DNA from: Candidatus Sungiibacteriota bacterium
GTDB lineage: Bacteria > Patescibacteriota > Minisyncoccia > Sungbacterales > HO2-52-23
Direction of reading: 5' to 3'
Length of the DNA stretch: 64,000 bases
Assembly (NCBI GenBank): GCA_016432465.1
Contig: CP066690.1
Span: 786,724-850,723 of the forward strand
Position numbers and translations under genes: made by a program. Under the pieces are notes generated by a model, which saw nothing but the letters and a program-made list of their open reading frames with translations, was not told the DNA's origin and did no database searches. Positions 4,447-32,833 of this stretch are shown in pieces (the first letter of the stretch is position 1; every line of letters starts with the position of its first letter).

Positions 4447-4476
4447 TTATTCAAACCTTTAAGTGTGCTATAGTAA

Positions 4477-4495
4477 TAGTGTATACAATACACTA
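4477..4495. promoter_or_regulatory. 19-bp perfect palindrome TAGTGTATACAATACACTA upstream of nadD-nrtR (candidate NrtR operator)
   Basis: Exact inverted repeat. The same half-sites recur at 15299, 16774 and 18319. Confidence 0.55.
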
Positions 4496-4523
4496 TATTT
4501 GCGTTATACTATTAAATACCAAC

Positions 4524-5108
4524 ATGAAGATTGGAATTTTGGGCGGGACGTTTGACCCGCCTCATAAGGGCCATAAATTAGTCGCGGGAATAGTTAAAAA
4601 AGAACTGGGGCTAGACCGGATTATTTTTATTCCCACCAAAGATCCGCCCCATAAAGTAAGGCCCAAAGTATCGCCGCAACATCGCTTTTTTCTGACCCGT
4701 CTTTTGGTAAGGGGTAAAAAGGGGTTCCTTGTTTCTGACTTGGAATTTAAACGTCCCGGGAAATCGTATACCGCCGACACCGTTCAGGAGCTTAGAAAAC
4801 TCTACCCCCAAGATAAGCTTTTTTGGATTATTGGCGCCGACGCCCTGCTTTATATGCCGCGCGGCTGGAAAGAGGGCTACAAGATTTTAGATAAGTGCCA
4901 ATTTGTAGTAGTAGTAAGGCCCGGCTATTCTTTGAAAAGCGTGCCCGGCCGCATCCTTCAGAAAGTTATTATTGTAAAAAATAGGGCGCGAGACGATATT
5001 TCAAGTACCGAGATACGCAGATACCTTAAGAGTGGGAAGAGTATTAAGGGTCTTCTCACGCCCCAACAAGAAATTTATATAAAACGTAAGCATCTGTATA
5101 AAACATGA
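4524..5108 (+). CDS. nadD: Nicotinate-nucleotide adenylyltransferase
   Basis: MKIGILGGTFDPPHKGH...PTKDPPHK (HxGH-type nucleotidyltransferase, NadD pattern). The longer ORF from 4281 is a read-through of the upstream repeat. Confidence 0.85.
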   Translation: MKIGILGGTFDPPHKGHKLVAGIVKKELGLDRIIFIPTKDPPHKVRPKVSPQHRFFLTRLLVRGKKGFLVSDLEFKRPGKSYTADTVQELRKLYPQDKLFWIIGADALLYMPRGWKEGYKILDKCQFVVVVRPGYSLKSVPGRILQKVIIVKNRARDDISSTEIRRYLKSGKSIKGLLTPQQEIYIKRKHLYKT

Positions 5109-5788
5109 TAAAACGACAATTTCTCAAAAAATTTGAAAAACCCATGATGACAGTTGATGTTGTCTTTTTTACTATTGATCAAAATAAGTTAAAAGTTCTT
5201 CTCGTAAAAAGGAAATACGATCCCTATGGGGGTTTCTGGGCCCTGCCCGGGGGGTTTATTAGAAAAAACGAAGAGATGTATGAAGCGGCCGCAAGAGAGT
5301 TAAAAGAGGAAACAGGGGTGCGTGGAGTGTATTTGGAGCAGCTTTATACCCTTGGAGCTTTAGGCCGTGATCCTCGGGGCCGGGTGGTTACCGTGGCCTA
5401 TTTTGCGCTGGCACCGCGCCCGACTAAGAAACTTAAGCCCTCTTATGATGCGGCAGAAGCCGGATGGTTTTTGGTGGACAAATTGCCGAGGCTCGCCTTT
5501 GATCATAAGAAAATTATTGTTTATGCTTTGAGACGGGTGCGTAATAAAATTCAATATACCAATGCGGCTTGGAGTTTGCTTCCCGCAACTTTTAGTCTGG
5601 GTGAGGGTCAAAAAGTTTACGAAAGTATCTTGGGCCACCGGCTGGATAAAAGAAATTTTCGCAAAAAGTTTCTATCCCTCGGATTGCTGCAAAAAATATC
5701 TAAGGTTCGCCGCGGGCTTCGTCAGCGTCCGGCCCAACTATATAAATTTAAAACAAAAAAATACGTGGAACTTAAAAGGTTTTTCTAA
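5105..5788 (+). CDS. Nudix hydrolase with C-terminal winged-helix region; NrtR-like NAD-metabolism regulator / ADP-ribose pyrophosphatase
   Basis: Intact Nudix box GFIRKNEEMYEAAARELKEETGV, C-terminal ~90-aa helix-rich extension, ATGA overlap with nadD, and NAD-gene context. Confidence 0.55.
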   Translation: MIKRQFLKKFEKPMMTVDVVFFTIDQNKLKVLLVKRKYDPYGGFWALPGGFIRKNEEMYEAAARELKEETGVRGVYLEQLYTLGALGRDPRGRVVTVAYFALAPRPTKKLKPSYDAAEAGWFLVDKLPRLAFDHKKIIVYALRRVRNKIQYTNAAWSLLPATFSLGEGQKVYESILGHRLDKRNFRKKFLSLGLLQKISKVRRGLRQRPAQLYKFKTKKYVELKRFF

Positions 5789-5819
5789 CCCTCAATATAA
5801 ATATGGCAGTCAAAAATAA

Positions 5820-5925
5820 ATCCCCCCACCTTCCCAGTGGGGTAGTGGACCCCGCGGGAAGGATTTCTACGGCGTCTATTCATCCTCGCAGCAAGCTACG
5901 GGGTATTCTAGGAAGGTGGGGGGAT
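5820..5925. repeat. TIR element copy 2 (inverted relative to copy 1)
   Basis: Reverse complement of 4342-4446 with a few substitutions. Confidence 0.8.
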
Positions 5926-5943
5926 AAACAATATCTTGGGTTT

Positions 5944-7860
5944 TTGCGCCTAGCAGCAGCGTCACCTCCTCTTAGAATTGGTGACGTAGACTATAATGTT
6001 AAAAAAATTTTGGAATTTGCCAAACGCGCTGATAAAGAGTCGGTTGATATCCTCGTATTTCCCGAGCTTTCCATTACTGCCTATACTGCGTCGGATTTAT
6101 TCTTTAACCGCACACTTCTTGCGCAGGCCCTTAACGGCCTTGCTAGAATTCGTCTGGCTTCCCGCGCTCTGGGCAGCGTACTTGTTGTGGGCGTTCCTAT
6201 TGCGCAGGAAGGAAAGCTTTTTAACACCGCGGCCGTGGTTTTTAAAGGAAAAGTTTATGGTCTCGTTCCGAAAACCTACGTTCCCGGATACAAAGAGTTT
6301 TATGAAGAGCGCTGGTTTGCTTCGGCCCGGGATTTGGTAGTCAAAGAAATTATGCTGGGTGGCCAGATGATTCCCTTTGGCACTGATATTTTGTTTCGTA
6401 TGCCCAAAATTTCCGGCGCGGTTCTGGGCGTGGAAATCTGCGAAGATCTTTGGATGCCTATGCCTCCCAGCTCTTTTCAGGTCCTCCGCGGCGCAACTAT
6501 TATTGCCAATCTTTCTGCATCCAACGATTTGGTGGGAAAGGCGGACTATCGCAGAGCGCTTGTTACCCAGCAGTCTGCCCGTGGAGTTTGTGCCTATGTT
6601 TATAGTTCCTGCGGCGTGCATGAATCAACTACGGATGTTGTTTTTGGGGGACATGCCTTGATTGCCGAAAACGGTGCGCTTCTTGCCGAGTCCAAACGAT
6701 TTATAAGAGAGGGCGAGATGACCCTCGCCGATATTGATGTAGAACATATGCTAGTGGATCGCGAACGCATGACGAGTTTCGGCGAATCAATACACGAGTC
6801 GCCGCAAAAAGAATTTCGTATAATTGATATTCCTTTACCAATACCTTTTCATCCGATTCCCAGACGTTTTATTGACCCTAATCCCTTTGTTCCTTCCAAT
6901 CCGGAGGAACGAGACCTTCGCGCCAAAGAAATTTTCTCCATTCAGGTGGCGGGGCTGGCCAAGCGTCTGGAGGCGGCCAAAATAAATAAAATGATTTTGG
7001 GTCTTTCTGGGGGACTGGATTCTACTTTGGCGCTGCTTGTAGCAGTTAAGACAGCCGAAACCCTTAACCTGCCTCATAAAAATATTTTTACCTATACCAT
7101 GCCCGGATTCGGAACTTCGCATCGTACTAAAAATAATGCTGTAAAACTGGCTCGGGCTTTAGGGGTAAACATAGAAACTATTGATATAATCAAAGGCGTA
7201 CTTCAGCAGTTCAAAGACATTAAACATAGTCCTAACGAAGAGAATACTGTCTTTGAAAATGCGCAGGCAAGATACCGCACCTATACTCTTATGGATAAGG
7301 CCAATCAAATTCATGGCTTGGTGATTGGCACCGGCGATCTTTCGGAAATTGCTCTGGGCTGGAATACTTACACCGGAGATCATATTGCGCATTACAACGT
7401 AAACTGCAGTGTACCTAAAACTTTGGTAAGATATCTGGTGCAATGGGCGGCTGAAACCCAAGTGGATAAAAAAACGCGGCGCATTCTTGAGGATATTTTG
7501 GCCACACCCATCTCACCCGAGCTTAGGAAAAATCATAAACCCGGCGAAATTTCTCATCGGACCGAAAAGCTTATCGGGCCTTACGAGTTGCATGACTTTT
7601 TCCTGTATCACTTTATCCGTTGGGTCTCTTCTCCTAAAAAGATTCTTTTCTTGGCGGAGCACTCATGGGGCAAAAAATACAAAACCCCAGAACTTAAAAA
7701 ATGGCTTAAGGTATTTTTGCAAAGATTTTTTGGCTCTCAATGGAAAAGGTCTGTGGCCACTGACGGCCCCAAGGTTGGATCGGTTTCTCTCTCTCCCCGC
7801 GGGGACTGGCGAATGCCGTCCGATGCCGAGGTTAAAATGTGGAGTGAGGAATTAAAATGA
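5944..7860 (+). CDS. nadE: Glutamine-dependent NAD+ synthetase (N-terminal nitrilase-like + C-terminal NAD synthase domains)
   Basis: VDILVFPELSITAYT (CN-hydrolase) and LGLSGGLDSTLAL (PP-loop). The start is proposed at TTG 5944 (LRLAAASPPLRIGDVDYN...), because the 5' extension of the ORF back to 5803 only translates the repeat. Confidence 0.8.
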   Translation: MRLAAASPPLRIGDVDYNVKKILEFAKRADKESVDILVFPELSITAYTASDLFFNRTLLAQALNGLARIRLASRALGSVLVVGVPIAQEGKLFNTAAVVFKGKVYGLVPKTYVPGYKEFYEERWFASARDLVVKEIMLGGQMIPFGTDILFRMPKISGAVLGVEICEDLWMPMPPSSFQVLRGATIIANLSASNDLVGKADYRRALVTQQSARGVCAYVYSSCGVHESTTDVVFGGHALIAENGALLAESKRFIREGEMTLADIDVEHMLVDRERMTSFGESIHESPQKEFRIIDIPLPIPFHPIPRRFIDPNPFVPSNPEERDLRAKEIFSIQVAGLAKRLEAAKINKMILGLSGGLDSTLALLVAVKTAETLNLPHKNIFTYTMPGFGTSHRTKNNAVKLARALGVNIETIDIIKGVLQQFKDIKHSPNEENTVFENAQARYRTYTLMDKANQIHGLVIGTGDLSEIALGWNTYTGDHIAHYNVNCSVPKTLVRYLVQWAAETQVDKKTRRILEDILATPISPELRKNHKPGEISHRTEKLIGPYELHDFFLYHFIRWVSSPKKILFLAEHSWGKKYKTPELKKWLKVFLQRFFGSQWKRSVATDGPKVGSVSLSPRGDWRMPSDAEVKMWSEELK

Positions 7861-7869
7861 TACCCGAAG

Positions 7870-8060
7870 CAGAGCCTAAAGAATTTAAAAAGTGGAGCCC
7901 CACGCGCAGAGCGCGTGGCACCCTGTGTTGCGGGGTTCCTCCCACGCTCGCGCGTGGGGCGGAACCCCGCACCGAGGGTCATTTCATCCACGGGAAGTAA
8001 GACTTCCCACGGGCAAAGCCCGTGGCCCTCTGGTGCGCGGGTAGCTATGGGGTGGCCACC
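7870..8060. repeat. Cluster of GC-rich palindromes (REP-like), including GGGAAGTAAGACTTCCC at ~7992-8008
   Basis: CCACGCGCAGAGCGCGTGG, CCCACGCTCGCGCGTGGG, GGGAAGTAAGACTTCCC and CACGGGCAAAGCCCGTG hairpins in ~190 bp of noncoding DNA. Confidence 0.6.
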
Positions 8061-8317
8061 CGCCGGAGGATTTATATGATGACGACTACAATACTGCTAA
8101 GAAAGCTTTAAGATATTTAGTGGAGTCAATAAACAGGAATTTTAAGGCTGCTTTATCTTTGGAAGAAATAGTCAAGCTATATCAAAAGTCCTATGAAGAT
8201 GTTTTGAGTAAAAAAAGACAGCGTAGGACAAGGTGATTAAATTTTATACCTGCTCGGTTAGGTGGTCTTCTCATCTTAATCATAACAACAGGCGGCCTTA
8301 AGGCCGCCTTGCTGGGT

Positions 8318-8682: not shown

Positions 8683-8716
8683 TGACAATTACGCTAGAGT
8701 TTGTTATTCTTTATAG
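8683..8716 (+). promoter_or_regulatory. Sigma-70-like promoter (TTGACA-17-TATTCT) plus GGGAGG RBS for pncA
   Basis: Consensus -35 and an acceptable -10, about 30 bp upstream of ATG 8743. Confidence 0.45.
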
Positions 8717-8742
8717 AGGGCCTACAAAGGGAGGCTAGAACA

Positions 8743-9336
8743 ATGTCTAAAGATGCGCTGATTATTGTTGATGTTCAGAACGATTTTTGTCTGGGTGGAT
8801 CCTTGCCTGTGCCGAACGGCGATAAAGTGGTAGAGCCGTTGAACAGAATGATTGGTAAGGCGGCAAAAAAAGATGGAGGGCTTATAATCGCTTCGCGCGA
8901 TTGGCATCCAAGAGAAACAAACCATTTTGCCGAGTTTGGGGGACGCTGGCCCGTACATTGCGTACAGGGAACCAAGGGTGCTGAATTTCACCCCGGACTT
9001 TTACTGCCAGCCGACAAAGCCATTATAGTTTCCAAGGGCATGGCAAAAGATGAAGATGCCTACTCTGCTTTTCAGGGTTCCGCAGTGCTTACGACCGCAG
9101 ATGATATAACTACTGTAACTATGTATTTGCGCGATATTCTGGGCGGCTGCGGGGTTGATACTCTTTATATCGGGGGTCTAGCCACTGATTATTGTGTAAA
9201 AGCAACTGCGCTTGATGCGCGCAGATTCGGATACGAAGTATATTTGCTGATTGATGCTTGCCGGGGGGTGGCCGCAGAAACCACCTCGGACGCCTTGATA
9301 GAAATGGCCCGGGCAGGGGTGAAGTTTATTTTATAG
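8743..9336 (+). CDS. pncA: Nicotinamidase/pyrazinamidase (isochorismatase family)
   Basis: MSKDALIIVDVQNDF... catalytic Cys in IGGLATDYCV, metal-binding DWHP. Confidence 0.8.
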   Translation: MSKDALIIVDVQNDFCLGGSLPVPNGDKVVEPLNRMIGKAAKKDGGLIIASRDWHPRETNHFAEFGGRWPVHCVQGTKGAEFHPGLLLPADKAIIVSKGMAKDEDAYSAFQGSAVLTTADDITTVTMYLRDILGGCGVDTLYIGGLATDYCVKATALDARRFGYEVYLLIDACRGVAAETTSDALIEMARAGVKFIL

Positions 9337-9485: not shown

Positions 9486-10955
9486 ATGCTGGAGGCGCAG
9501 CTTATTTTTGACCGTTACCATGCAACAATGGATCAGTTTGCTTCGGGAGAGCACGCCCTGATTGGTGGTAAACCTTTAGCCGACCTGCCGGCCACATTTT
9601 ACGTATCGCAGCGCAAACTTTCTTTTGCTCCTTGTGTTGGTCATGAGCGTCTGCTGGAGGGTTTGATGAGACGAAACATTGATGTACCCAGAGCGCGGTT
9701 TCTTCGTGAGGATAAGGCAGGACTTTCTCGAACCGCCGAGCGTCTTGCTTCAACCTCTAACCCTTTCTTGATTCGTTGTGTAAAGCCCGGAACTATTATG
9801 TTCGCCCGGGAGCCTTTTGCAGATATCACAGGTCCTTTTGCCGAGACGCAGATGATGGAAGTAAGGTTTGAGCACGCATTTGACGAACCCATGACGGTTG
9901 CGGGCAGGGCTTTAGCCATACGGCTTGATGCGGGAGAACGCTGGATTTCTGATTTTTCCTTACGTCGGGATGGAAGTCTTGGTAGAGCGGTGGACATTGC
10001 CAAGTACTCTTATATCGGAGGTTTTGACGATACCTCCAACATGGAAGCCGCGTTTCTTTTGGACATTAATGCCGTGGGCACCATGGCTCATTATCTGGTG
10101 CAGGCGTTTCTGGTGTCTAGTCGCTATCCCCAGCGTTCGGAAAAAGGAGTACGCAAACACTTTCAACAAGCATGTTTTGAACAATGGTTAGATGCGCACC
10201 CCAAAGGCACAACCCTGCTGTTGGACACTATTACCTTAAGGCTTGGAGTAATCCACACTATTCGTGCTGCTAAAAGTTCGGAAGGCAGACGCGGGGCTTT
10301 AAGGGCAGTACGTATTGACTCTGGTAATTTGATTAAAAACGCGCTTTGGGTGCGTGCGATGCTGGATGCCAATGCCCTTGAAGACGTTAAGATTATTCTC
10401 ACATCTGACCTTGACAGGAATCTGATTGCCGAGATTGTTAAACGCTGTCCGGCAGTATACGGATTTGGCGTAGGCACAAAACTTGCCGCCGAGGTGGAAA
10501 ACGTCGCCGGTGTTATATTTAAGCTTTCCCAGATTGATGACCTGCCGACCCTCAAGTGTTCCGAAACTCCCGGGAAAGAAACTCTCCCCGGTCGCCTGCA
10601 GGTATGGCGGTGTATTGATCATGAGGGATTTTTCGTCAAAGATGTAATTGGTACTGATGGTTGGGCGGCAAGCGAACAAGATAGAAAAGAATTTTCTTCT
10701 GCCTTTCCGCTGTTGCAGCCGTGGTGGGGCAATGCTTTCAAGACTGACTTTCTGCCTTATGAACAGCCGCGTATGCCGACCATTCAGGAACAGCGCGTGT
10801 TTGTACAGCAACAGGTTAAAAGATTTCGTGATATCCATAACTATCCGGTAGAACTCTCCAGTCTGACCAAAGAACGGATTAGGTATCTTACAGAAATGAT
10901 GACCCGTGATGAGATGGGAGAGAGTGGGGTCGTCATGGTTGACTATCCATCGTAG
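9486..10955 (+). CDS. pncB: Nicotinate phosphoribosyltransferase
   Basis: 489 aa with the GFGVGTKL motif and a NAPRTase-like N-terminus. Adjacent to pncA. Confidence 0.65.
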   Translation: MLEAQLIFDRYHATMDQFASGEHALIGGKPLADLPATFYVSQRKLSFAPCVGHERLLEGLMRRNIDVPRARFLREDKAGLSRTAERLASTSNPFLIRCVKPGTIMFAREPFADITGPFAETQMMEVRFEHAFDEPMTVAGRALAIRLDAGERWISDFSLRRDGSLGRAVDIAKYSYIGGFDDTSNMEAAFLLDINAVGTMAHYLVQAFLVSSRYPQRSEKGVRKHFQQACFEQWLDAHPKGTTLLLDTITLRLGVIHTIRAAKSSEGRRGALRAVRIDSGNLIKNALWVRAMLDANALEDVKIILTSDLDRNLIAEIVKRCPAVYGFGVGTKLAAEVENVAGVIFKLSQIDDLPTLKCSETPGKETLPGRLQVWRCIDHEGFFVKDVIGTDGWAASEQDRKEFSSAFPLLQPWWGNAFKTDFLPYEQPRMPTIQEQRVFVQQQVKRFRDIHNYPVELSSLTKERIRYLTEMMTRDEMGESGVVMVDYPS

Positions 10956-10998: not shown

Positions 10999-11047
10999 TG
11001 AAAATGATAAAGCCGAGAGTTCACGCTCTCGGTCTTTGACTTAACTG

Positions 11048-11872
11048 TTAACTGCAGGGCAAGGCGTTTAAGGTTTGTAGCATCAACTTGCCTTCGCCGG
11101 ACTCGCCCTGCTCCGGATCGCCAACAAAAATAGTATAAGAGCAGTTTTTGATGGGGTTTTCGTCATCTTTTCTGGTGAAGTCTTGAGACTCCCAACGTTC
11201 TTGTGTGGAAATAAAGGCGGTGATAGTTATATGGTGGCTCACCAAAAGAACTTCTCTTTCGGAGAACTCACGGATAAGTTTTCCCGAAAGAAGCCGCATC
11301 CGTCCCTCTACCCCCAGAACATTTTCTCCCTGCGGATAGCAATAGTCATATTTGCCGTCTCTCAAGTAAATGTACCTTTGTTCTGGGTGGAAGGTTTCCA
11401 TTACTCTCCAGTTATTGTAGAGACCGGCAAGCCCGATGTCTATTTCTCTAATAAGCGGTTCAGTCTCCTGTTTTATTCCAGCAAGTTCCGGCCATCCGCG
11501 GGTCATTCCTTCCAGTGTCTGTTTGGTGCGAAGATACGGCGAGACCAGAATAACGTCGGGAAGCCGTGCATCAGGAAGAATTTTCAGGGTTCGCCCCAGA
11601 CGTTCTGCCTGCAGCCAGCCGGTATCAGTTAGGGGTGTTAGTCGGTTACTGTAAGGCAGGAAATACTTTCTATACATTTTTACTGCCAACCCACGCAGTT
11701 CCTTTGAGGCTTTTACATACGGCCAATGTCTTTGGAACTTATCTAGATTAAATTCCTGCTCAAAGAGCTTTACAAAACGCTGATATTCCGGATCTTTCCT
11801 TTGCTGTTCTTTGACTCTGTTAAATTCTGATTCTCCGTGGCGCACTAAGATGACTTTACGCGGCCATTTCAT
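11048..11872 (-). CDS. Histidine phosphatase superfamily protein (phosphoglycerate-mutase-like)
   Basis: N-terminal ILVRHGESEFN (RHG catalytic motif) and C-terminal LLVSHH second histidine. Confidence 0.6.
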   Translation of the reverse strand: MKWPRKVILVRHGESEFNRVKEQQRKDPEYQRFVKLFEQEFNLDKFQRHWPYVKASKELRGLAVKMYRKYFLPYSNRLTPLTDTGWLQAERLGRTLKILPDARLPDVILVSPYLRTKQTLEGMTRGWPELAGIKQETEPLIREIDIGLAGLYNNWRVMETFHPEQRYIYLRDGKYDYCYPQGENVLGVEGRMRLLSGKLIREFSEREVLLVSHHITITAFISTQERWESQDFTRKDDENPIKNCSYTIFVGDPEQGESGEGKLMLQTLNALPCS

Positions 11873-11957
11873 TCGTTAGTCCCCCCGCAAGGTTTCTTTA
11901 ATCGTACCACGATTTCTCTGATTTTGCAAACTAAAACCGAAGCATGAGCTTCGGTTG

Positions 11958-13145
11958 CTATCTTCCCTCCAAAATGGTCTGCATAATCATTCCGACAGTT
12001 GACCAGTCAAGCAGTCGTGTCTCAATAATTTCGCCCAATGTTTTTACTTCAAGTGAGGTTTGTTCTCCTTCAGCGATATTTCCAAAGACCGTGCGGTTTC
12101 GAGCATTAGTCTCAAAATACTCAATTTCTTCGGGTTTAAGTCGGATAGAAAAAAGGTGGGTGTGATGCGCAGAAAAAGTTCCGGCAACCTGACGCGAACC
12201 ATGGGCAACCAGGCGGCATTTTTCAAATTCTTTTCCGGTTTCTTCCTTAATCTCCTCCAGGGCAATTTCTTCCGGTGTCAGCCACCATTGGGGTGAGGAG
12301 CCGCTGGGCAGCTCGTGGATAAATCCATCCGGAGTTCTCCCCGAAGGCCGGAACTCTTTTACCAAAACAATTTTTGTATTCAGCGGGTTGAAAGCTTCCT
12401 GCCATAGCACTGTGGCCGAGGTATCGGTTCTGGACAGGGCAAAATCAAACTCGCTTGTTTTGAATCTATTTTCCGAGGCAATAAAGATCCGTGCCTGTAG
12501 TATCCATCTGTAAACAAATGACCCCTTAGCATTCTTGCGGGAGCACCAAAGTACCTCGGCCCCTTCCAGTATATTTCCTGCTGTCTTTAGACCTTCATAC
12601 CACAATTGGAATGATTTCGCGTTCCAGATGTGAAGCGGTATGTCGCATTCACCGCCATTTCTCTCGGCGCCGCCTCCAATGTAGGAGACCGCAAAATCAA
12701 GGGTGTCTTTCAGCGTTTGAAAGCGCGGGACGTCTTGCCTGTCTGCCGTCAGTTCAAGATATTTATTTCTAGGAAGATCAGGTGGAGCGCCATAAACTAT
12801 TTTGCCCGAGCGTACCCAAAGACCAAATTCCACGTTGGTGGTAAAGGCAGGCATGGTAGTAAGGTTTCTTGGCACCCAAAACACAATAAGATCCGCCCTG
12901 TTAAGGCCTATTCGCTCCCAAGCAATCTGGTGTTTGTATTCTTGATTGTTTATATCTTCTTCTCTTGGTCCGTCGCGATTTTCCGGTATAAATACATGCC
13001 CGTCATAGCCAAGTTCCTCCAGAATTTTGATTGCCCCGGGAATGCGCCAAGAGGGAGTAGTGCGTTTCCTCGGCGTCGGCCCTGCAAGAAATATAGATTT
13101 TTTAACGTGCGTAGGAAAAGGTTCTCTGGTATAAATCAGTTCCAT
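11958..13145 (-). CDS. Two-domain protein: N-terminal Rcl/DNPH1-like nucleoside 2-deoxyribosyltransferase-fold domain fused to C-terminal Nudix hydrolase
   Basis: N-terminal IFLAGP...ADLIVFWVP...TTNVEFGLWVRSGK fits the Rcl/NDT pattern. The C-terminal half has the Nudix box LPSGSSPQWWLTPEEIALEEIKEETG. Confidence 0.5.
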   Translation of the reverse strand: MELIYTREPFPTHVKKSIFLAGPTPRKRTTPSWRIPGAIKILEELGYDGHVFIPENRDGPREEDINNQEYKHQIAWERIGLNRADLIVFWVPRNLTTMPAFTTNVEFGLWVRSGKIVYGAPPDLPRNKYLELTADRQDVPRFQTLKDTLDFAVSYIGGGAERNGGECDIPLHIWNAKSFQLWYEGLKTAGNILEGAEVLWCSRKNAKGSFVYRWILQARIFIASENRFKTSEFDFALSRTDTSATVLWQEAFNPLNTKIVLVKEFRPSGRTPDGFIHELPSGSSPQWWLTPEEIALEEIKEETGKEFEKCRLVAHGSRQVAGTFSAHHTHLFSIRLKPEEIEYFETNARNRTVFGNIAEGEQTSLEVKTLGEIIETRLLDWSTVGMIMQTILEGR

Positions 13146-13260
13146 GACGTCCTCCCCCTGCTGGCAATGTTTAAAGTTTAAACTTTTTTGTTAAAAAAAA
13201 CAAGCGAAAACCCACACCGAATTTTGGTGTGGGAAGTCTGACTTTCTGTGGGTGATTGGG

Positions 13261-14142
13261 CTATAGTATTACTGCTCCTTCATATTGCCAGTAGGGCCGG
13301 ATACGTCCGTTAGGAGAAAAAATTATATTTCTCAATTCTTCCGAGTCTGGCTGGATAGAAAGACAGTTATTAAGACAGAAATTCTGGCCGTTGACGTCAA
13401 AAACTACTGCACCATGGGTTAGGGTATACAGTCTCCTTCCTTGTGTAAAAAGAAATTGCTGGATATCCCCAAACTGTTCAGTGGTTAGCTGGTGCTCACT
13501 GGTCCACTCCCATACTTTTTTGTCTCTGGCCAGTCTTTCCTCTGGTTTTTCGACCGGCGTTCCGGTAAGTTGTTCCACCCTGTTTGTTTTGGCAAATTCA
13601 ATAAGACGTGTCAGCTCTTTGCTGTTATCAATAAACCCCCCGGTCAGAACGCAAGTTAGTCGCACCGAGAAAAGCATGTCGTGCAATGTTTGGATAAGAC
13701 GCGGCAGGTCAAAATAACTTTTGGGAGAGTGAAAAAAGAATTCTCCATTTTTCCCCGGATCGTAGTGGGCAATAGATATGGCAATAGTAGTCATACCAAG
13801 TTCGTACCACATTTTGAGGTGGGAAGCGTATACTTCCGGTTTTCGAGCAAGCAGACTGCCGTTGGTTTGCAGTTCAATAAGAGGAAATTCAAAGGGCTCA
13901 AGCTCTTGTAGAAATCGCGTAATTTGTTTTGGAAAGATCGTAGGTTCACCCTTGCCGGTCAGCATGACTGTGGTACATCCGCATTGTTTGGCTAGTCGGC
14001 AGGCAATTTTGAAGTTCCGCCAATTTACCTCCGGCTCCTTAGTCTCTATCCCCTCAGGTAGTGTCATTTTGGAAACACAGGGCGAGCAACAGGCATTACA
14101 GGCCTCACTTCCGGCGATAATGCTGAAGGTCTGGATGCGCAT
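13261..14142 (-). CDS. Radical SAM enzyme (small activase/QueE-like fold, family unassigned)
   Basis: CNACCSPC equals CX3CX2C, plus the glycine-rich TVMLTGKGEPT SAM-binding motif. 293 aa. Confidence 0.6.
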   Translation of the reverse strand: MRIQTFSIIAGSEACNACCSPCVSKMTLPEGIETKEPEVNWRNFKIACRLAKQCGCTTVMLTGKGEPTIFPKQITRFLQELEPFEFPLIELQTNGSLLARKPEVYASHLKMWYELGMTTIAISIAHYDPGKNGEFFFHSPKSYFDLPRLIQTLHDMLFSVRLTCVLTGGFIDNSKELTRLIEFAKTNRVEQLTGTPVEKPEERLARDKKVWEWTSEHQLTTEQFGDIQQFLFTQGRRLYTLTHGAVVFDVNGQNFCLNNCLSIQPDSEELRNIIFSPNGRIRPYWQYEGAVIL

Positions 14143-14231: not shown

Positions 14232-14331
14232 TCCCCCCACCCAGGGAACCGCGGCTGGAAGGCCGCGGAGGAATGGCATAGTCTCTCGCGAAACGAGAAA
14301 CACAAGATAACCCACCCGGGAGGGTGGGGGG
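14232..14331. repeat. TIR element copy 3 (variant termini CCCCCCACCC/GGGTGGGGGG, different core)
   Basis: Inverted G/C-run termini enclosing the CCGCGGCTGGAAGGCCGCGG hairpin. Confidence 0.6.
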
Positions 14332-14333: not shown

Positions 14334-15206
14334 TCATCTAAACGCGAATTTTTCCTGCAGGCTTTTGAAAAAATAGTTTTTTTCAAGTTCCAAAAAGCGC
14401 ACCAATCTCTCGGATTTTTTAATAATTATGCGGTCTCCCGGGCGCAGCGCGAGAGCCCGTTCCGTGTCAGTCGAGAGCATGACGTCCACCGGCTCTTTTG
14501 TATCCTGCAGTAGAAATCGGCCACTTTTTCTAAAACCCCCAATCTTCACGGTGATGGTTCTGTCCCTTTTAATAACGAGGCTCGGCGTAGGCAGACTATG
14601 GTCCATTAATTCTGTGATGATAAAACATTTGATGTCGGGCATAACAATGGGGCCGTGGGCGGATAGATTGTAGGCAGTAGAGCCGGTTGCCGTAGAAACC
14701 AAAACCCCGCTGCCGTGGATTTTTTGTACACAATGCTCGTCCACATACACTTCAATATCAACAACCCCCGAAAGATTCTGGACCGCAATCTCATTCAAGG
14801 CGTATCCGGACAAAATTCTTTTGCCTCTACGTTCAACCACTGCTCGCATCATCATATGCGGTACCACGCGGTATTTACGGCGCAAAACACTAAAGAGTCC
14901 CGCTACGAAGTTTTTGGGGTTTCTGACGGAGGCAAGAAATCCTACATGACCAAGGTTCAGGCCCAAAATACGCGGATTCCAACGCTGAAATTTTTGAGCA
15001 GCTTCCAGTATGGTTCCATCCCCGCCCAGTACAATCAAAAGTTCCGGGGCTGATTTTTTTTGCCGCGGAACCGCATTGGATGCCAGAATTTGAATTTTGG
15101 TAAAACGTTTTTTTAGGAGTCGGGCAAGTTTGTTTTCCCAAAATTTGGCAGCTTTAACTTCCGTCCGAAAATAAAAAGCTACTTTTTTAAATGCTAAGCC
15201 GGACAT
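14334..15206 (-). CDS. nadK: NAD+ kinase
   Basis: GGDGT motif (LIVLGGDGTILEAA) and NE/D motifs; 290 aa. Confidence 0.8.
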   Translation of the reverse strand: MSGLAFKKVAFYFRTEVKAAKFWENKLARLLKKRFTKIQILASNAVPRQKKSAPELLIVLGGDGTILEAAQKFQRWNPRILGLNLGHVGFLASVRNPKNFVAGLFSVLRRKYRVVPHMMMRAVVERRGKRILSGYALNEIAVQNLSGVVDIEVYVDEHCVQKIHGSGVLVSTATGSTAYNLSAHGPIVMPDIKCFIITELMDHSLPTPSLVIKRDRTITVKIGGFRKSGRFLLQDTKEPVDVMLSTDTERALALRPGDRIIIKKSERLVRFLELEKNYFFKSLQEKFAFR

Positions 15207-15261
15207 GCGGTAATTTTATCACGTTTAGCCCTTTTTTGCCAAGTAGACTCCGGTTAACACC

Positions 15262-15290
15262 TTGACTTATTTTCACCGGCGTACTATACT
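15262..15290 (+). promoter_or_regulatory. Sigma-70-like promoter TTGACT-17-TATACT
   Basis: The -10 ends 8 bp before the palindrome at 15299. Confidence 0.5.
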
Positions 15291-15298
15291 AATACTGG

Positions 15299-15317
15299 TA
15301 GTGTAGCGTGTACACTA
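15299..15317. promoter_or_regulatory. 19-bp perfect palindrome TAGTGTAGCGTGTACACTA (candidate NrtR operator) in the nadK/15342 divergent region
   Basis: Exact inverted repeat, same family as 4477. Confidence 0.55.
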
Positions 15318-15341
15318 TTTGGTTCTTTTGGGGAGGATGTT

Positions 15342-15803
15342 GTGAGGACGGTTGAGATTGTGGTACGCAACAAAGACGGGAAATTATTTTTCTACGGTGA
15401 TGGGATTTATTTTAATTTTCTTAGTGCCTTTCCTTTTTGGGGAGGAGAGCTGTGTTTACTACGAGATGGCAAGATCATTGATCGCGCTCGCATTGATGAA
15501 CACGGCACACATGCGCCTACTGTATGCTTTTTGGGGCTAAAGAGTGTGGGCACGTATGCAACAACAGATCTTTTTGTCGTTCAGTTCCAAGAGGGTGATC
15601 TGCTAAAAATTGAGTTTCTGGACACGGTCGGCGAATTACGGCAATGGGTTATTAATGACTTTATTGATACGGAGGTTTGGAAGCGGGTAAAAGAGAGTGG
15701 TCATACCACCCCATCCTATGCGGTTCTGGAGTTATATGCGGAAGAATGGGAGCGTTTATGTAAAGAGATTAAGGATAAAAACATAGATACATTTGAAATT
15801 TAA
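15342..15803 (+). CDS. Hypothetical protein (GTG start, RBS GGGAGGA)
   Basis: 153-aa ORF immediately downstream of the operator-bearing promoter. Confidence 0.4.
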   Translation: MRTVEIVVRNKDGKLFFYGDGIYFNFLSAFPFWGGELCLLRDGKIIDRARIDEHGTHAPTVCFLGLKSVGTYATTDLFVVQFQEGDLLKIEFLDTVGELRQWVINDFIDTEVWKRVKESGHTTPSYAVLELYAEEWERLCKEIKDKNIDTFEI

Positions 15804-15911
15804 GAAACAAGGCACCCGTCTAAGGGTGCTTTAATGCAAAATTTTTTGATTGACTGTTGTATTTAAAGGGGGTACTATTGTTTAGGTTTGGATACAAGGG
15901 ACTCTTAAATA

Positions 15912-16718
15912 ATGCGGCAGCCGCTTCATAAAAAGGCGCGTCTGGAAAAGCCGTCTGTATATCCCGAAAGATTTTCTGTCCCCGACGACAAAGTAGACTG
16001 GTGTAGCTATTTTGGAGAATACCGCCCGCCTTATTTTGTGGCACCAGAAATTTTGGAGCGGTTTTATCAAAATCCGTCAGAAGTAGATCCAGAAGATTGC
16101 TGTAAGATTAAAAGGCCGTTTTACAGTTTTGAAAATAAGGTGGAGCTTGATAGTTCTAATCGGCCGAGAAATCCCAGAGGCAGAACCGGTCTTGCGGGTA
16201 GGGGCATACTTTGGAGGTGGGGAGCTAACCTAGCAGTTGATACGGTTTTAAGCAGGCTTAATGCAGAAACGGACGAGTTGGAGTTGCTTCTTATAAATAG
16301 AAAAGACACCGGAGAGCTCGCTCTTCCTGGGGGTATGGTGAATAAAGGTGAAAAGATTCGGGAGGCACAAGAGCGGGAATTTGAAGAAGAAACAGGTCTC
16401 AAGATTTCTATGGAAGACTCCGAAACGGTTTATTGCGGTTATGTGGATGATCAAAGAAACACAGATAACGCTTGGATGGAAACCGTGGCCTCGCATAAGC
16501 ACATGGGTAGTAATCAGGCAAGTACTTTAAGTTTTCGGGCTGGCGATGACGCCGAGAATGTTCTTTGGCATTCTTTGAAACCCGAGCTCATCACTAATCT
16601 TTATGCCAGTCATGACGAAATTGTTAGGCTGGCTATGTATAGGTTTTACGATCGCTGTGGCGGTTGGTTGACTGCAAAAACAAAGGAACAAATTGAGGCA
16701 GTGATAGTCCGTCAGTAG
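15912..16718 (+). CDS. NUDT9-like ADP-ribose pyrophosphatase (Nudix)
   Basis: RNPRGRTGLAGRGILWRWGAN, Nudix box GGMVNKGEKIREAQEREFEEETGL and RNTDNAW resemble the NUDT9/ADPRase family. Confidence 0.6.
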   Translation: MRQPLHKKARLEKPSVYPERFSVPDDKVDWCSYFGEYRPPYFVAPEILERFYQNPSEVDPEDCCKIKRPFYSFENKVELDSSNRPRNPRGRTGLAGRGILWRWGANLAVDTVLSRLNAETDELELLLINRKDTGELALPGGMVNKGEKIREAQEREFEEETGLKISMEDSETVYCGYVDDQRNTDNAWMETVASHKHMGSNQASTLSFRAGDDAENVLWHSLKPELITNLYASHDEIVRLAMYRFYDRCGGWLTAKTKEQIEAVIVRQ

Positions 16719-16773: not shown

Positions 16774-16792
16774 TAGTGTGCTATGCACACTA
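16774..16792. promoter_or_regulatory. 19-bp perfect palindrome TAGTGTGCTATGCACACTA just downstream of TTGACA-17-TATAAT promoter (candidate NrtR operator)
   Basis: Exact inverted repeat overlapping the predicted transcription start of the 16834 gene. Confidence 0.55.
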
Positions 16793-16833: not shown

Positions 16834-18168
16834 ATGTATGAGAAAGTCTACGACGTCGCCATTATTGGCGGAGGGGTTACTGGCACAGCCCAAGCGTATA
16901 TCTTTTCTTATTTTGTGGAGGGGGTTTCCCGGATTTTGCTCGTTGAGAAAAATAATAATGTGGCGCTGGTAAATTCGCACACAGTCAGCAACGCCCAAAC
17001 ACTGCATGGCGGCGATACAGAAACAAATTTTGGTTTAGAGAAGGCGTTGAAGATGAGAGACGCGGAGCGAATGCTCTCGGCGTTTCTTGAGAAATTTAGT
17101 CACGGTCAGGGCGCATTCCGCCGGCTCTATAAAATGGCTTTTGGAGTAGGGGAGAAAGAGGTTCGGATTCTCTCCGAGCGCTTTGCCATGATTAGGAGCT
17201 ATTATCCTACTTTGCAGTTTCTGGGACGCGAGGAGCTGGTGCGCATTGAACCGAAGCTCTTGGAAGGACGTGATCCCAGCATACCCGTAGCAGCGCTTTA
17301 TCGTCCCAATGGTTATGCGGTGGATTATCGAAAACTGGCAGAGTGTTTTGTGGCTGAAGCCAAAAAAACAGGCAAAGTGGAAATTTTACTTGGCACAAAA
17401 ACGAATGAGATCATAAGGCGGGGCAATCTCTTTGAGATACGCACATCCAAAGGCAATTATCTTGCTAAAGCCGTGATGGTGGCAGCAGGACCCTATAGTC
17501 TTCTTTTTGCTCACGCCTTGGGTTATGCCGGGGATTATACAATTCTTCCGGTTGCCGGAAATTTCTACCACACTAAGGCTGTCTGTTTTCCTGGAAAGGT
17601 ATATGGTGTTCAAGATCCTGTATTACAGTTTACCGCAGCGCATATTGATTCTTCCGTGGATAATCCTGGAAAGATGCGTCTTGGTCCTACGGCTGACGTT
17701 GTTCCTCTTCTTGAAAAACACCACTGGATGACTTTTATAGACTTCTTGCGTACGGGGATCATTGGGTTACGCGGTGCCCGCGCTATTGCCAAGATTTTTT
17801 GCAACTGGAAGGTTGTGAAATTTGCAGCGCGTAACATCGTCTACAAGCTTCCTGTTGTTGGTAAATGGTACTTTTTGAAAAAGGCAGCGCAGAAACTCGT
17901 ACCCACCCTTCGTTATCGTGATATCCAGTTTGCCAAAGGAGAGGGTGGTATCAGGCCGCAGTTGGTGAACGTAGAAGAGGGGCGACTGGAAATGGGTACA
18001 GGGAAGATTTTGGGCGATAGTATTATTTTTGATATCACCCCTTCGCCCGGGGCTTCGGACTGTTTGAGGAATGCTGTGGTAAACGCTAAGCACGTCGTCC
18101 AACTTTCAGGCGGTGCATACGTTTTTGACGAAGAAAGTTTTCAGAAGGAGTTCGGCCTCCACACCTAG
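16834..18168 (+). CDS. FAD-dependent oxidoreductase (DAO/L-2-hydroxyglutarate-oxidase-like); candidate functional substitute for L-aspartate oxidase
   Basis: N-terminal dinucleotide-binding motif YDVAIIGGGVTGTA, 444 aa. It sits immediately upstream of nadA-nadC and carries the shared operator. Confidence 0.5.
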   Translation: MYEKVYDVAIIGGGVTGTAQAYIFSYFVEGVSRILLVEKNNNVALVNSHTVSNAQTLHGGDTETNFGLEKALKMRDAERMLSAFLEKFSHGQGAFRRLYKMAFGVGEKEVRILSERFAMIRSYYPTLQFLGREELVRIEPKLLEGRDPSIPVAALYRPNGYAVDYRKLAECFVAEAKKTGKVEILLGTKTNEIIRRGNLFEIRTSKGNYLAKAVMVAAGPYSLLFAHALGYAGDYTILPVAGNFYHTKAVCFPGKVYGVQDPVLQFTAAHIDSSVDNPGKMRLGPTADVVPLLEKHHWMTFIDFLRTGIIGLRGARAIAKIFCNWKVVKFAARNIVYKLPVVGKWYFLKKAAQKLVPTLRYRDIQFAKGEGGIRPQLVNVEEGRLEMGTGKILGDSIIFDITPSPGASDCLRNAVVNAKHVVQLSGGAYVFDEESFQKEFGLHT

Positions 18169-18318
18169 CGGTGGAGGTTTTTCTTTTATCTTTCGTCCTC
18201 CAGAAAACGCGGCAGCTTGGGAAGTCAGACTTCCCTTGCTGCCGAGTAGTTCATCACCTTTATCATTGAGCGGTTGATGCCCTCTTGACTTTTTTTGAAG
18301 AGCGCGTTACACCTTACT

Positions 18319-18337
18319 TAGTGTACAGGTTACACTA
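18319..18337. promoter_or_regulatory. 19-bp perfect palindrome TAGTGTACAGGTTACACTA upstream of nadA (candidate NrtR operator)
   Basis: Exact inverted repeat. Confidence 0.55.
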
Positions 18338-18358
18338 ATTGGACCCTTGAAAAAGGAG

Positions 18359-19474
18359 ATGGCCGTGCAAGAAATAGTATCCGGCGATATCCTACCGGCG
18401 CGGGAGGCCATTGAAGCCATTGATGAGACTGACCTTGGGCCGCCGATTGAAATACCAGCAATATCCCCGGACGCTTTCCCGGAAAATATCACGGATGAGG
18501 AGCGGAAGTTTTTAAGATCCGAAATTCAACGCCTCAAAGAGGAGCGTAATGCCCTAATTTTGGCCCACAATTATATGCCCAAAGACGTGCAGGATATTGC
18601 CGATGTGGTGGGGGACTCGCTTTATCTTGCCCAGCGGGGTACGGCATCCAATGCGGATATTCTTTGTGAGGCCGCAGTGCTTTTTATGAATCAGATTTTG
18701 GCAATCATGAAAAAGCCGCACCAGAGGGTTTTGGCGCCGAGTATGTCGGCCTTATGTTCTTTGGCAGCGCATGCGGACGCGGAAAAAATCCGGGCGTGGA
18801 GGCAAGAGCATCCGGACGGCATTGTCATAAGTTATGTAAATACCTACGTGGACGTAAAAGCCGAAAGTGATTATTGCTGTGCGTCCGCGAACTCCCCCAG
18901 GGTTATTCTTCATGTTCTCGCGCATCATCCCGGAAAACCTATTCTTTTTCTCCCCGATGTTTATCTTGGTTTTTATGCGGCAAAACTTCTGCAGCAGCAA
19001 GGCGAGTCTTTGGATCGGCTGTGGCTTATGATGGGCGTATGTCACGTGCACGATCGCATACGGCCTCATCATGTAGAAGCGGCACGCAAACTCTATCCCG
19101 GAGCGGCAGCCGTGGTGCATCCGGAATGCGGTTGCACCAGCGCCTGTATGCGTCAGATCAGTGATGGTTTGGTGCCTTCCAGCATGATGCAGTTTCGTTC
19201 CACTCAAGGCATGATTGATTTTGTAAAACAATCACCCCAAAGGGTTGTGATTGTGGCGACGGAAGTCGGGAACCTAGTTCCTATGTCCAAGGCCGCACCA
19301 GATAAAGTTCTGATTCCTGCCAACCGCGAGGCAGTCTGCGCTTTCATGAAGCAAAATACACTGCGCGGCGTTTATGGGTCGTTGCGCGATCTCAAATATG
19401 AAATTTCGATTGATGATCCGGAACTTGCTAAGCGCGCCCGCATCCCCATTGAGCGGATGCTCGCGATTGTGTAA
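18359..19474 (+). CDS. nadA: Quinolinate synthase
   Basis: ILAHNYMPKDVQDIADVVGDSLYLAQ and the three-Cys cluster context. ATG 18359 with AAAAGGAG RBS is preferred over TTG 18347. Confidence 0.85.
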   Translation: MAVQEIVSGDILPAREAIEAIDETDLGPPIEIPAISPDAFPENITDEERKFLRSEIQRLKEERNALILAHNYMPKDVQDIADVVGDSLYLAQRGTASNADILCEAAVLFMNQILAIMKKPHQRVLAPSMSALCSLAAHADAEKIRAWRQEHPDGIVISYVNTYVDVKAESDYCCASANSPRVILHVLAHHPGKPILFLPDVYLGFYAAKLLQQQGESLDRLWLMMGVCHVHDRIRPHHVEAARKLYPGAAAVVHPECGCTSACMRQISDGLVPSSMMQFRSTQGMIDFVKQSPQRVVIVATEVGNLVPMSKAAPDKVLIPANREAVCAFMKQNTLRGVYGSLRDLKYEISIDDPELAKRARIPIERMLAIV

Positions 19475-19485: not shown

Positions 19486-20322
19486 ATGAATGAACTCTGG
19501 CTTGAACCGGAACTTAAGCGTTTTTTGCTGGAGGATATAGGGTATCTAGAAATTGATTTTGGGGTTCCAGCGCGTTACATTACTGCCGAAATTGTTGCTG
19601 GAGGCGAAGGAGTATTTTGCGGTGGTCGTTTTATAGCAAAACTTTTTAATCTTTTGGTTCCGCCGGAGATTAGACCGCTGCAGATGATTCATTGCGAACC
19701 GGAAGGCGCAGAATTTAAAAAAGGAACAATACTGGCCAGTTTCAGAGTCAACGCCGAAGCCCTGCGGCACGGCACTCGTACGGTACTCAACCTACTGACG
19801 CACCTTACGGCGATTGCCACGCGTACTCGCGAAGTAGTAAAAGAGCTGCAGAATTTTTCAGTTACCTTGCTTGATACTAGAAAAACAACTCCGGGATTGA
19901 GGATTTTTGAGAAATATGCAGTTCGCGTGGGCGGCGCATCCAACCATCGCATGGGCAGGTTTGACGGCATACTTATTAAAAAAGAAGACATTAAAATTGA
20001 TGGCGGGATCAGGAATGCCGTGGAGAAGGCATGCCGCAAGAAAGCGTACCTTGTCGCTGTGTCGGTGGAAATAGAAACACTGGAGGAATTGGGGGAGGCG
20101 CTGGGAGACAAGCGCGTGACGCATCTTTTGGTTGATAACCCCAGTATTGAACTTCTCCAAAGAACAGTAGAGCGTTGCGCCAGCACCCATATAATAGAAG
20201 CATCAGGGGTGGGAAAGTTGGACCTTCGCGAGGTAGCGGCCACCGGTGTGCATTATATCTCTCTAAGTTCGTTGATTCTCGGCGCAAAAACAATTAAGAT
20301 GAAGATGAGAATAGTCTCCTAA
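19486..20322 (+). CDS. nadC: Nicotinate-nucleotide pyrophosphorylase (quinolinate phosphoribosyltransferase)
   Basis: LLDTRKTTPGLRIFEKYAVRVGGASNHRMGRFDGILIK matches the NadC signature. Confidence 0.85.
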   Translation: MNELWLEPELKRFLLEDIGYLEIDFGVPARYITAEIVAGGEGVFCGGRFIAKLFNLLVPPEIRPLQMIHCEPEGAEFKKGTILASFRVNAEALRHGTRTVLNLLTHLTAIATRTREVVKELQNFSVTLLDTRKTTPGLRIFEKYAVRVGGASNHRMGRFDGILIKKEDIKIDGGIRNAVEKACRKKAYLVAVSVEIETLEELGEALGDKRVTHLLVDNPSIELLQRTVERCASTHIIEASGVGKLDLREVAATGVHYISLSSLILGAKTIKMKMRIVS

Positions 20323-32828: not shown

Positions 32829-32833
32829 AATTT

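Follow-up and report, generated by a model that had tools for sequence, protein, structure and literature searches.

Radical SAM, NDT-Nudix and histidine phosphatase genes in an NAD supercluster of Patescibacteria: one pathway or separate accessory enzymes?

Bacterial biosynthesis and salvage of nicotinamide adenine dinucleotide (NAD) are, to our knowledge, considered fully mapped, and we know of no radical S-adenosylmethionine (SAM) enzyme that belongs to one of these routes; literature searches for a place of the family described below in any NAD route likewise found none. A stretch of DNA from a Candidatus Sungiibacteriota bacterium raises the question of what such an enzyme does among NAD genes. 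The host is a metagenome-assembled genome of small size from the Patescibacteria (Candidate Phyla Radiation, CPR), and the stretch, here called the window, comprises 64,000 nucleotides of its contig CP066690.1. It carries an NAD supercluster of about 16 kb, in which a plus-strand half upstream and a plus-strand half downstream flank a minus-strand centre. There lie the genes for a radical SAM enzyme of 293 amino acids from an unnamed CPR family (rSAM; 13261-14142), for a two-domain protein of 395 amino acids that joins a nucleoside 2-deoxyribosyltransferase (NDT)/Rcl-like N-glycosidase fold to a NudF-like Nudix module (FUS; 11958-13145), and for a branch-1 histidine phosphatase of 274 amino acids (HP; 11048-11872, from the open reading frame (ORF) call and a Pfam His_Phos_1 match). 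Each has a 100%-identical record at NCBI, with the locus tags HYW89_04340 for FUS and HYW89_04345 for rSAM.

The three co-directional minus-strand frames do lie, as had been described from the sequence alone, between the NAPRTase gene (9486-10955, plus strand), which converges on HP, and nadK (14334-15206, minus strand). The latter, recognised by Pfam NAD_kinase and NAD_kinase_C and by the NCBIfam NAD kinase model (E 1.8e-48), is the first gene of the minus-strand run nadK-rSAM-FUS-HP. The original prediction had seen in the trio an operon whose products would act together on a substrate derived from pyridine nucleotides. All four domain assignments (radical SAM, NDT/Rcl-like, Nudix, histidine phosphatase) hold, and the link to pyridine nucleotides and ADP-ribose has become considerably stronger, since CPR NAD clusters repeatedly contain rSAM and FUS, which in other genomes stand directly behind an NrtR-type operator. 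The operon and the joint pathway fared worse. We regard the trio as accessory enzymes, each expressed separately, within a supercluster for NAD homeostasis of the NrtR type that is typical of CPR, not as a three-step pathway, and give this reading a probability of roughly 0.55. It draws on the observed folds, the conservation of catalytic-type residues, the association with NAD genes and the common operator; the substrates, the order of reactions and the regulation within the window are our proposals.

The wider interest of the locus is that two large uncharacterised families, rSAM and FUS, are wired into CPR NAD operons behind a common NrtR-type operator. This could show how ultra-small symbiotic bacteria sustain their NAD and ribose-phosphate pools, could name a gene for those steps of the pyridine nucleotide cycle that a mononucleotide nucleosidase performs, and could account for jumbo phages that carry a FUS-type fusion. 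We tentatively entertain the possibility that CPR NAD metabolism has two enzymes unknown elsewhere. The first would be rSAM, which, under NrtR control and with the aminotransferase-fold protein PLP5 in a sister clade, may carry out a radical reaction not seen before in the supply of NAD precursors or the conversion of NAD metabolites; the chance that the locus conceals a radical SAM reaction new to NAD metabolism is a realistic one. The second would be the NDT-Nudix fusion, which may be the gene for a nicotinamide mononucleotide (NMN) or adenosine monophosphate (AMP) nucleosidase coupled to a dinucleotide pyrophosphatase, a type of activity long described and genetically unassigned. If so, products of NAD consumption would be returned as nicotinamide or adenine, plus ribose-5-phosphate, for resynthesis.

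Operators, neighbourhoods and transcription signals

NrtR operators are palindromes built on a GT-N7-AC core, and NrtR is reported to be released from DNA by its effector ADP-ribose (Rodionov et al., PMC2330246). The window holds four perfect copies of the palindrome TAGTGT-N7-ACACTA, all in promoter regions of the NAD cluster, and six operator-like sites at no more than two mismatches, a number reached in none of 100 shuffles. Its core is the published GT-N7-AC (PMC2330246), and the palindrome is probably the NrtR operator of the host lineage. Putative operators are located inside the listed nadD frame (4477-4495), in the divergent promoter region between nadK and a frame of 153 amino acids, u153 (15299-15317, no strand assigned; perfect palindrome TAGTGTAGCGTGTACACTA), upstream of a DAO-family gene (16774-16792) and upstream of nadA (18319-18337).

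A scan of 177 related loci (2.0 Mb, with some contigs duplicated between the two locus sets) returned 65 perfect and 43 one-mismatch sites, compared with none and 3-7, respectively, in shuffled sequence. Most sites in the loci stand 5-150 bp ahead of NAD genes, namely nadE/nadK (divergent), pncA, nadA, pnuC, pncB, nrtR, the gene for an ADP-ribosylglycohydrolase (ARH) and a QRPT-like gene. An operator directly precedes rSAM in seven loci and FUS in six; in one of the latter (L170) it is common to FUS and a divergent HP, and in one of the former (L109) the pair rSAM-PLP5 stands alone behind it, apart from other NAD genes. Because of these placements in related genomes, rSAM and FUS would count as members of the NAD regulon in CPR, with the operator sites as the strongest evidence and a weaker case for HP. 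In PMC2330246, searches for 'radical' and 'deoxyribosyltransferase' found no mention of rSAM, PLP5 or FUS as regulon members.

The conservation of the trio was examined in 160 related loci, 80 each for FUS and rSAM, and all three genes occur together in none of them. rSAM is found near FUS in 10 of the 80 FUS loci and FUS near rSAM in 9 of the 80 rSAM loci; HP appears in a single locus of each set. Conservation of the trio as a neighbourhood, proposed earlier as a check, was thus not found, and the window lacks PLP5, the commonest partner of rSAM. Adjacent pairs are met repeatedly, though in varying order, namely rSAM-FUS, FUS-HP, rSAM-HP (L173) and nadK-HP (L174), and on this account a looser functional link among the three appears plausible.

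The signals around the genes have a similar bearing on the operon. The intergenic gaps along nadK-rSAM-FUS-HP measure 191, 115 and 85 bp, and each contains a GC-rich hairpin with a T-rich tail. Terminator-like hairpins on the minus strand follow nadK (14311-14328), rSAM (13211-13233, with a long T-run), FUS (11935-11956) and HP (11013-11032, in the convergent region common to NAPRTase), and each gene is preceded by its own Shine-Dalgarno sequence. The genes share a strand, but because a hairpin stands after, and a Shine-Dalgarno sequence before, each of them, a single operon nadK-rSAM-FUS-HP is not established. A sigma-70-like promoter candidate for nadK (15213-15242, minus strand; TTGGCA-18-TAAAAT with TG) is a consensus match only, and a plus-strand promoter-like site lies just upstream of the operator at 15299-15317.

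The hairpin behind rSAM overlaps a dispersed palindrome that resembles a repetitive extragenic palindromic (REP) element. This short sequence, GGGAAGTCAGACTTCCC, stands at four intergenic places (7992-8008, 13231-13245, 18219-18235 and 60556-60590), one copy abutting that hairpin, and gives nine strand-wise matches where 0.11 are expected.

Could rSAM, FUS and HP nevertheless serve one pathway, as the original prediction had it, in which a pyridine nucleotide with a radical modification is built or broken down by the radical reaction itself, by cleavage of the pyrophosphate, by cleavage of the N-glycosidic bond or exchange of the base, and by removal of phosphate? In the window the genes stand side by side and point the same way, rSAM adjoins FUS in at least ten loci, rSAM and HP overlap (L173) or diverge (L082), FUS and HP keep company in four loci, an operator is common to genes of the set, and the structural neighbours MoaA, viperin and BlsE of rSAM act on the riboses of nucleotides or nucleosides. 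We consider such a pathway unlikely all the same: the trio is missing from all 160 other loci, the window lacks the PLP-fold protein that most often accompanies rSAM, FUS abounds in lineages, phages and plasmids without rSAM, and a terminator-like hairpin follows each gene.

The NDT-Nudix fusion

The N-terminus of FUS matches PF15891 above the curated threshold (amino acids 15-123; 12777-13103, minus strand) and has the NDT/Rcl-like N-glycosidase fold, as had been predicted. The AlphaFold2 model of the protein (pLDDT 90.2, pTM 0.84) gave a Foldseek match with E 1.7e-12 over about 210 columns. The C-terminal NudF/NUDT5-like module (amino acids ~190-395; 11961-12578, minus strand) has the Nudix alpha/beta/alpha fold together with the N-terminal beta subdomain that ADP-sugar pyrophosphatases typically have, and 176-210 residues align to NudF and NUDT5. 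Both of these are ADP-sugar pyrophosphatases, with which the module shares about 14% sequence identity (E. coli NudF 1g0s/1viq, Klebsiella NudF 9dtc, human NUDT5).

The Nudix box, which had been called intact, is so in part. In its EE-x2-EE (amino acids 297-302) the glutamates E298, E301 and E302 do not vary and, with G304, fit the consensus GX5EX7REUXEEXGU, whereas the arginine of 'RE' is replaced by Glu297 (relatives have E, A, D, N or H) and the upstream G and E are spaced differently. At E<=0.01 Pfam NUDIX does not match the window protein, although some homologues have a precomputed PF00293 assignment. ADP-ribose pyrophosphatases (ADPRases) have a conserved proline about 16 residues downstream of the box, and at this position FUS has Ala321 ('RQVAGTFS'; family consensus 'RQLAGTFS'), as read by eye from the alignment. 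FUS thus differs from NudF and NUDT5 in the replaced arginine, the altered box spacing, the alanine and the fused N-glycosidase-fold domain.

Residue conservation was followed in 28 close homologues and in a distant alignment of 18 sequences from CPR, Myxococcota, Planctomycetota, Actinomycetota, two jumbo phages and two Streptomyces plasmids. In the Nudix module E298, E301, E302, R227, K229, R239, E264, R266, R311, R318 and Q319 are invariant in all 18. The NDT-like domain keeps the motifs IFLAGPTPR, D85 and TTNVE106FG; D85 is present in 28/28 close and 18/18 distant sequences, E106 in 28/28 and 16/18, and E106, R26, R34 and R93 are conserved in all 18 except the plasmid copies, where E106 has become Trp. 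Given this conservation, both domains look like enzymes under selection. By motif resemblance, E106 and D85 may be the equivalents of the NDT/Rcl nucleophile, and the conserved Arg26, Arg34 and Arg93 would suit a substrate that bears phosphate better than a nucleoside. The fold class comprises nucleoside-5'-monophosphate N-glycosidases such as Rcl/DNPH1, MilB/BlsM and LOG/PpnN. The kin of the domain include Rcl/DNPH1, the nucleoside 2-deoxyribosyltransferases, the MilB/BlsM CMP hydrolases and PDB entry 4mcj (BDI_0649), a member of PF15891; we know of no characterised PF15891 member, and a literature search found none. A precedent for the fusion is NadM-Nudix (Synechocystis slr0787; Francisella 2qjo, 2qjt), which likewise joins a Nudix module of the ADP-ribose type to a second NAD-metabolic activity. 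That activity is an adenylyltransferase in NadM-Nudix, as opposed to an N-glycosidase fold in FUS. NadM-Nudix is under NrtR control, and the window holds nrtR and GT-N7-AC palindromes.

Most likely, FUS is a recycling enzyme with two activities. With the Nudix module it would split ADP-ribose, or a closely related dinucleotide derived from NAD, at the pyrophosphate into a nucleoside 5'-monophosphate and ribose-5-phosphate (or NMN); the mononucleotide (AMP and/or NMN) would then lose its base through hydrolysis of the N-ribosidic bond by the Rcl/NDT-like domain. Free adenine or nicotinamide and ribose-5-phosphate would pass to PncA, PncB/NAPRTase and the PRPP synthetase Prs. Two substrate routes can be envisaged. 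The route from ADP-ribose through AMP to adenine would fit the NudF fold and a regulator that responds to ADP-ribose; alternatively, a route from NAD through NMN to nicotinamide would fit the tight adjacency of FUS and pncA and the presence of a NUDT9-type ADPRase in the window.

The neighbours of FUS were counted in the best 80 loci, by tblastn within 8 kb and by ORF clustering. The former found pncA in 18, nadK in 14, rSAM in 10 and HP in one; the latter added pncB (16), nadD (10), nadE (9), the NrtR family (9), ARH (8) and nadA (8). NAD genes are near FUS in 24 of the 80 loci, and all 24 are low-GC, CPR-like loci, of which the set contains about 42; pncA lies directly behind FUS, at less than 300 bp, in many loci. 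The family as a whole is far larger, with more than 1,000 homologous clusters and 465 stretches of GTDB species genomes, and beyond CPR it extends to Myxococcota, Planctomycetota and Actinomycetota as well as to jumbo phages and Streptomyces plasmids. Across the high-GC phyla, whose DNA has 65-75% GC and gave mostly spurious ORF calls, clustering of ORFs revealed no neighbour family in common.

The copies on mobile elements have neighbourhoods of their own. Gene gp334 of Bacillus phage G (L171, 244460-245650) encodes a full-length homologue (43% identity), 5.5 kb upstream of the metallophosphoesterase gp341, and the uncultured 485-kb phage LR745208 (L172) carries a full-length FUS at 11989-13206, followed 1.6 kb downstream by two overlapping genes, for a Macro-domain protein and a metallophosphoesterase (14853-16249); the phage copies are 42-43% identical to FUS. 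Streptomyces linear plasmids (L175/L176) have copies of 33% identity near a gene of the 2H '2'-5' RNA ligase family', which keep all Nudix residues and have lost the NDT-like catalytic-type glutamate, and in another plasmid (L177, 5078-6495) Nudix, HIT and NDT-like domains are encoded by separate, consecutive genes beside parAB. Macro, 2H, ARH and NUDT9 are all families that handle ADP-ribose, so that ADP-ribose or products of NAD breakdown are the recurring theme.

From these copies one might read FUS as primarily an enzyme of conflict or of mobile elements, which degrades ADP-ribose-derived immune signals or clears the products of NADase defence and came into CPR NAD clusters secondarily. 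Full-length copies in phage G and in the 485-kb phage beside Macro and metallophosphoesterase genes, the copies on linear plasmids, and a patchy distribution over distant phyla that suggests horizontal transfer would all suit this idea. We find it rather improbable, as PADLOC had no match for FUS (nor for HP), defence genes are conserved beside FUS in no lineage, and in CPR the gene stands behind an NrtR-type operator among housekeeping NAD genes. More generally, a defence-system reading was not adopted as primary because PADLOC and the PHROGs gave only null, weak or generic matches.

The radical SAM enzyme and the phosphatase

The radical SAM assignment of rSAM rests on 'CNACCSPC', a CX3CX2C cluster motif at C15/C19/C22, and on the GGE-like SAM motif 'GKGEPT', both present as predicted and invariant in 26 homologues, and on a partial TIM barrel. 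Structurally it comes closest to GDGT-MAS, MoaA and viperin. No NCBIfam model came near its own cutoff and no named family matched, and rSAM is not a housekeeping activase; nor does any NCBIfam model name the families of rSAM, FUS or HP. A search of PDB sequences with the rSAM profile gave only artefactual alpha-Rep matches and viperin at E~0.04, with nothing below 0.04, and PHROGs gave only generic radical SAM families of unknown function, with no match to rSAM in phages. Named members of the family, which comprises 669 sequence clusters, are all from CPR.

Three assignments were considered for rSAM and rejected. MoaA (GTP 3',8-cyclase) scored 38.4 and 37.2 bits against cutoffs of 325 and 284, and rSAM has neither the conserved C-terminal three-cysteine motif nor a second cluster motif of the MoaA type. 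Viperin (CTP dehydratase) or pVip reached 20.5 bits against a cutoff of 180, and only E 1.4e-4 for pVip in PADLOC. For a glycyl-radical activase (PFL-AE, NrdG), neither a family score nor an adjoining glycyl-radical enzyme was found. The genomic context is likewise one of NAD genes rather than molybdopterin (MoaA) or defence (viperin). From the MoaA/viperin-like architecture, the substrate of rSAM may be nucleotide-like.

Neighbourhoods of rSAM were studied in 80 metagenome loci, of which the 49 of at least 5 kb were informative. In 36 of these 49 rSAM occurs with NAD genes, and in 33 with two or more; in loci without them, many candidate neighbour ORFs looked spurious. Gene orders include NadK<-NadE-NrtR-rSAM-FUS-PncA-PncB-NadA, rSAM-PnuC-NadR-FUS-PncA, QRPT-like-PncA-like-NadE-rSAM-PLP5-NrtR-NadK-like-NadA and PncB-PncA-like-rSAM-PLP5-NadE-NadD-NrtR. 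PLP5 (346 amino acids; ~320-350 across loci), which is closest to HisC/CobD, lies directly behind rSAM in 21-24 of the 80 loci, mostly with overlapping or abutting stop and start (e.g. L130, 7396-9308; L133, 5939-7872; L158, 8001-9778; L109, 4145-5955). The PLP5-linked proteins form a sister subfamily, 46-56% identical to the rSAM of the window, and the pair is usually placed within NAD operons and at times alone behind an operator. We propose that rSAM performs radical chemistry on a substrate related to NAD and probably nucleotide-like; in the sister subfamily it would do so together with the translationally coupled PLP5.

A different role would follow if rSAM, with or without PLP5, supplied a precursor of the pyridine ring, either by replacing NadB, which supplies iminoaspartate to NadA, or by opening a new route to nicotinate, with FUS and HP as unrelated salvage enzymes. 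NadB is absent from the window and from 176 of the 177 NAD-cluster loci (±8 kb searched); the query was an E. coli sequence, and the one match (L142) indicates that it works. NadA-rSAM-PLP5 with overlapping genes occurs in two loci (L130, L132) and rSAM-NadA in a third (L082), and the alternative use of ThiH, a radical SAM enzyme, or ThiO, an FAD oxidase, for dehydroglycine is an established replacement of this kind. However, rSAM-PLP5 is also found in clusters that hold salvage genes only, with no NadA inside 8 kb (L158/L159), and by itself in four loci, a DAO-family oxidase beside nadA would be the simpler NadB substitute in the window, and the 26 rSAM homologues conserve no auxiliary-cluster cysteines of the sort expected for dehydrogenase chemistry. 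We hold this role to be very unlikely.

The third protein, HP, is a histidine phosphatase as predicted, with an RHG motif at amino acids 10-12 (VRHGES) and a Pfam His_Phos_1 score of 74.5 bits (cutoff 21.7; E 1.1e-20). It shares RHG and His_Phos_1 with the branch-1 phosphatases of the CobC and PhoE type, and differs from them by scores below cutoff, an insertion of about 60 amino acids after the RHG motif and an NAD rather than cobalamin context. CobC and the phosphatase domain of Rv2228c were among its best, though weak, NCBIfam matches; the equivalogs compared (CobC, PspA, GpmB and others) all fell far under their cutoffs, and CobC alpha-ribazole phosphatase, at 35.9 bits against 162.9, was rejected. 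Among PDB sequences only an irrelevant RecA fragment was matched, and among PHROGs only generic phosphatase families of unknown function.

Homologues of HP number 400, the named ones from CPR. Its close orthologues are all linked to NAD, in shuffled order. In L173 (78% identity) HP follows rSAM with overlapping stop and start, and in L174 (65%) it follows nadK; in L161 and L169 (56% each) and in L170 (43%) it diverges from FUS with prs, NAPRTase and pncA nearby; in L082 it diverges from rSAM, and in L010 it lies 4 kb from FUS. Of seven distant homologues (38-43% identity), one stands beside a NadE-NadD fusion and one beside FUS. HP would be a phosphomonoesterase acting on a phosphorylated NAD metabolite, for which NADP(H), 2'-phospho-ADP-ribose and NMN or nicotinic acid mononucleotide (NaMN) are candidates; NADP(H) or 2'-phospho-ADP-ribose is an attractive guess, from the adjacency to nadK in L174 and in the window. 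The NadE-NadD fusion is itself a side observation: it is an apparent CPR protein of 811-862 amino acids with CN_hydrolase, NAD_synthase and cytidylyltransferase-like domains (L161, 360-2795; L162, 9342-11930).

Several observations weigh against the trio as accessory enzymes of NAD homeostasis. In the window no operator stands directly before rSAM, FUS or HP, and the nearest site (15299-15317) is placed for the promoter of the opposite strand. Thirty-eight high-GC, non-CPR FUS loci have no NAD neighbours, save for a nadE about 1 kb off in one (L070); the FUS of phage G lies among replication genes, which fits a more general nucleotide role; and five of the seven distant HP homologues (38-42% identity) are without NAD pathway genes, one with only a Nudix gene nearby. 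The box of FUS without the canonical arginine and with Ala321 for the downstream proline is a further point, as is the bona fide NUDT9-type ADPRase that the window already encodes, because of which FUS may prefer another substrate here. Finally, searches for literature on the rSAM, FUS and HP families found none; a paper on phage NARP3 is unrelated and concerns PnuC and NadR.

A last reading would make the placement coincidental and the trio a set of generic house-cleaning enzymes, i.e. a sanitiser of the nucleotide pool, a broad phosphatase and an orphan radical SAM enzyme. The distant HP homologues and non-CPR FUS copies outside NAD contexts would agree with this, as would the JGI annotation of FUS as 'MutT', and even then better annotation would result for more than 1,500 protein clusters. 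It is nonetheless the least probable of the explanations considered: dozens of independent CPR contigs place these genes with NAD genes repeatedly and in changing order, which, along with operators directly before rSAM and FUS, goes far beyond chance.

The surrounding cluster and minor observations

The upstream half of the supercluster consists, on the plus strand, of nadD (4281-5108), nrtR (5105-5788), nadE (5803-7860), pncA (8701-9336) and the NAPRTase gene. The listed start of nadD is probably about 250 bp too early, because the cytidylyltransferase domain begins at amino acid 86, homology begins at about 4527, and the operator at 4477-4495 falls inside the frame. In the 457-bp gap after nadE lies an array of very GC-rich hairpins (7880-8095, plus strand) with a minimum free energy of -111.7 kcal/mol (z -6.07 versus shuffles) and no match to an Rfam family; it could represent stacked REP-like elements or a structured RNA of a new type.

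The downstream half, also on the plus strand, contains u153 (15342-15803), the NUDT9-type ADP-ribose pyrophosphatase gene (15912-16718), the DAO-family FAD oxidoreductase gene (16834-18168), nadA (18347-19474) and nadC (19486-20322). For u153 no match was found in Pfam, NCBIfam, PADLOC or PHROG; it and the NUDT9-type gene both lie downstream of the operator at 15299. The NUDT9-type protein matches human NUDT9 (1q33) with E 2.6e-39 and is similar to the NUDT9-H domain of TRPM2. None of the other CPR loci examined has an unambiguous gene of this type, and the weak Nudix2 matches there mostly overlap NrtR genes. The DAO-family oxidoreductase, directly upstream of nadA-nadC and with a putative operator of its own, is best matched by enzymes like L-2-hydroxyglutarate, glycerol-3-phosphate and glycine oxidases; an oxidase of the family again stands beside nadA or nadK in further CPR loci (L003, L004/L088, L028, L036). 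It is a candidate for a non-orthologous replacement of L-aspartate oxidase.

Beyond the cluster, the window carries tRNA genes, dnaG and rpoD at a GC content of about 46-48%. Directly after tRNA-Asn (31828-31900) the GC content dips to 0.39-0.40 (32001-38000), compared with 0.45-0.49 elsewhere, and this low-GC stretch may be an integrated island.

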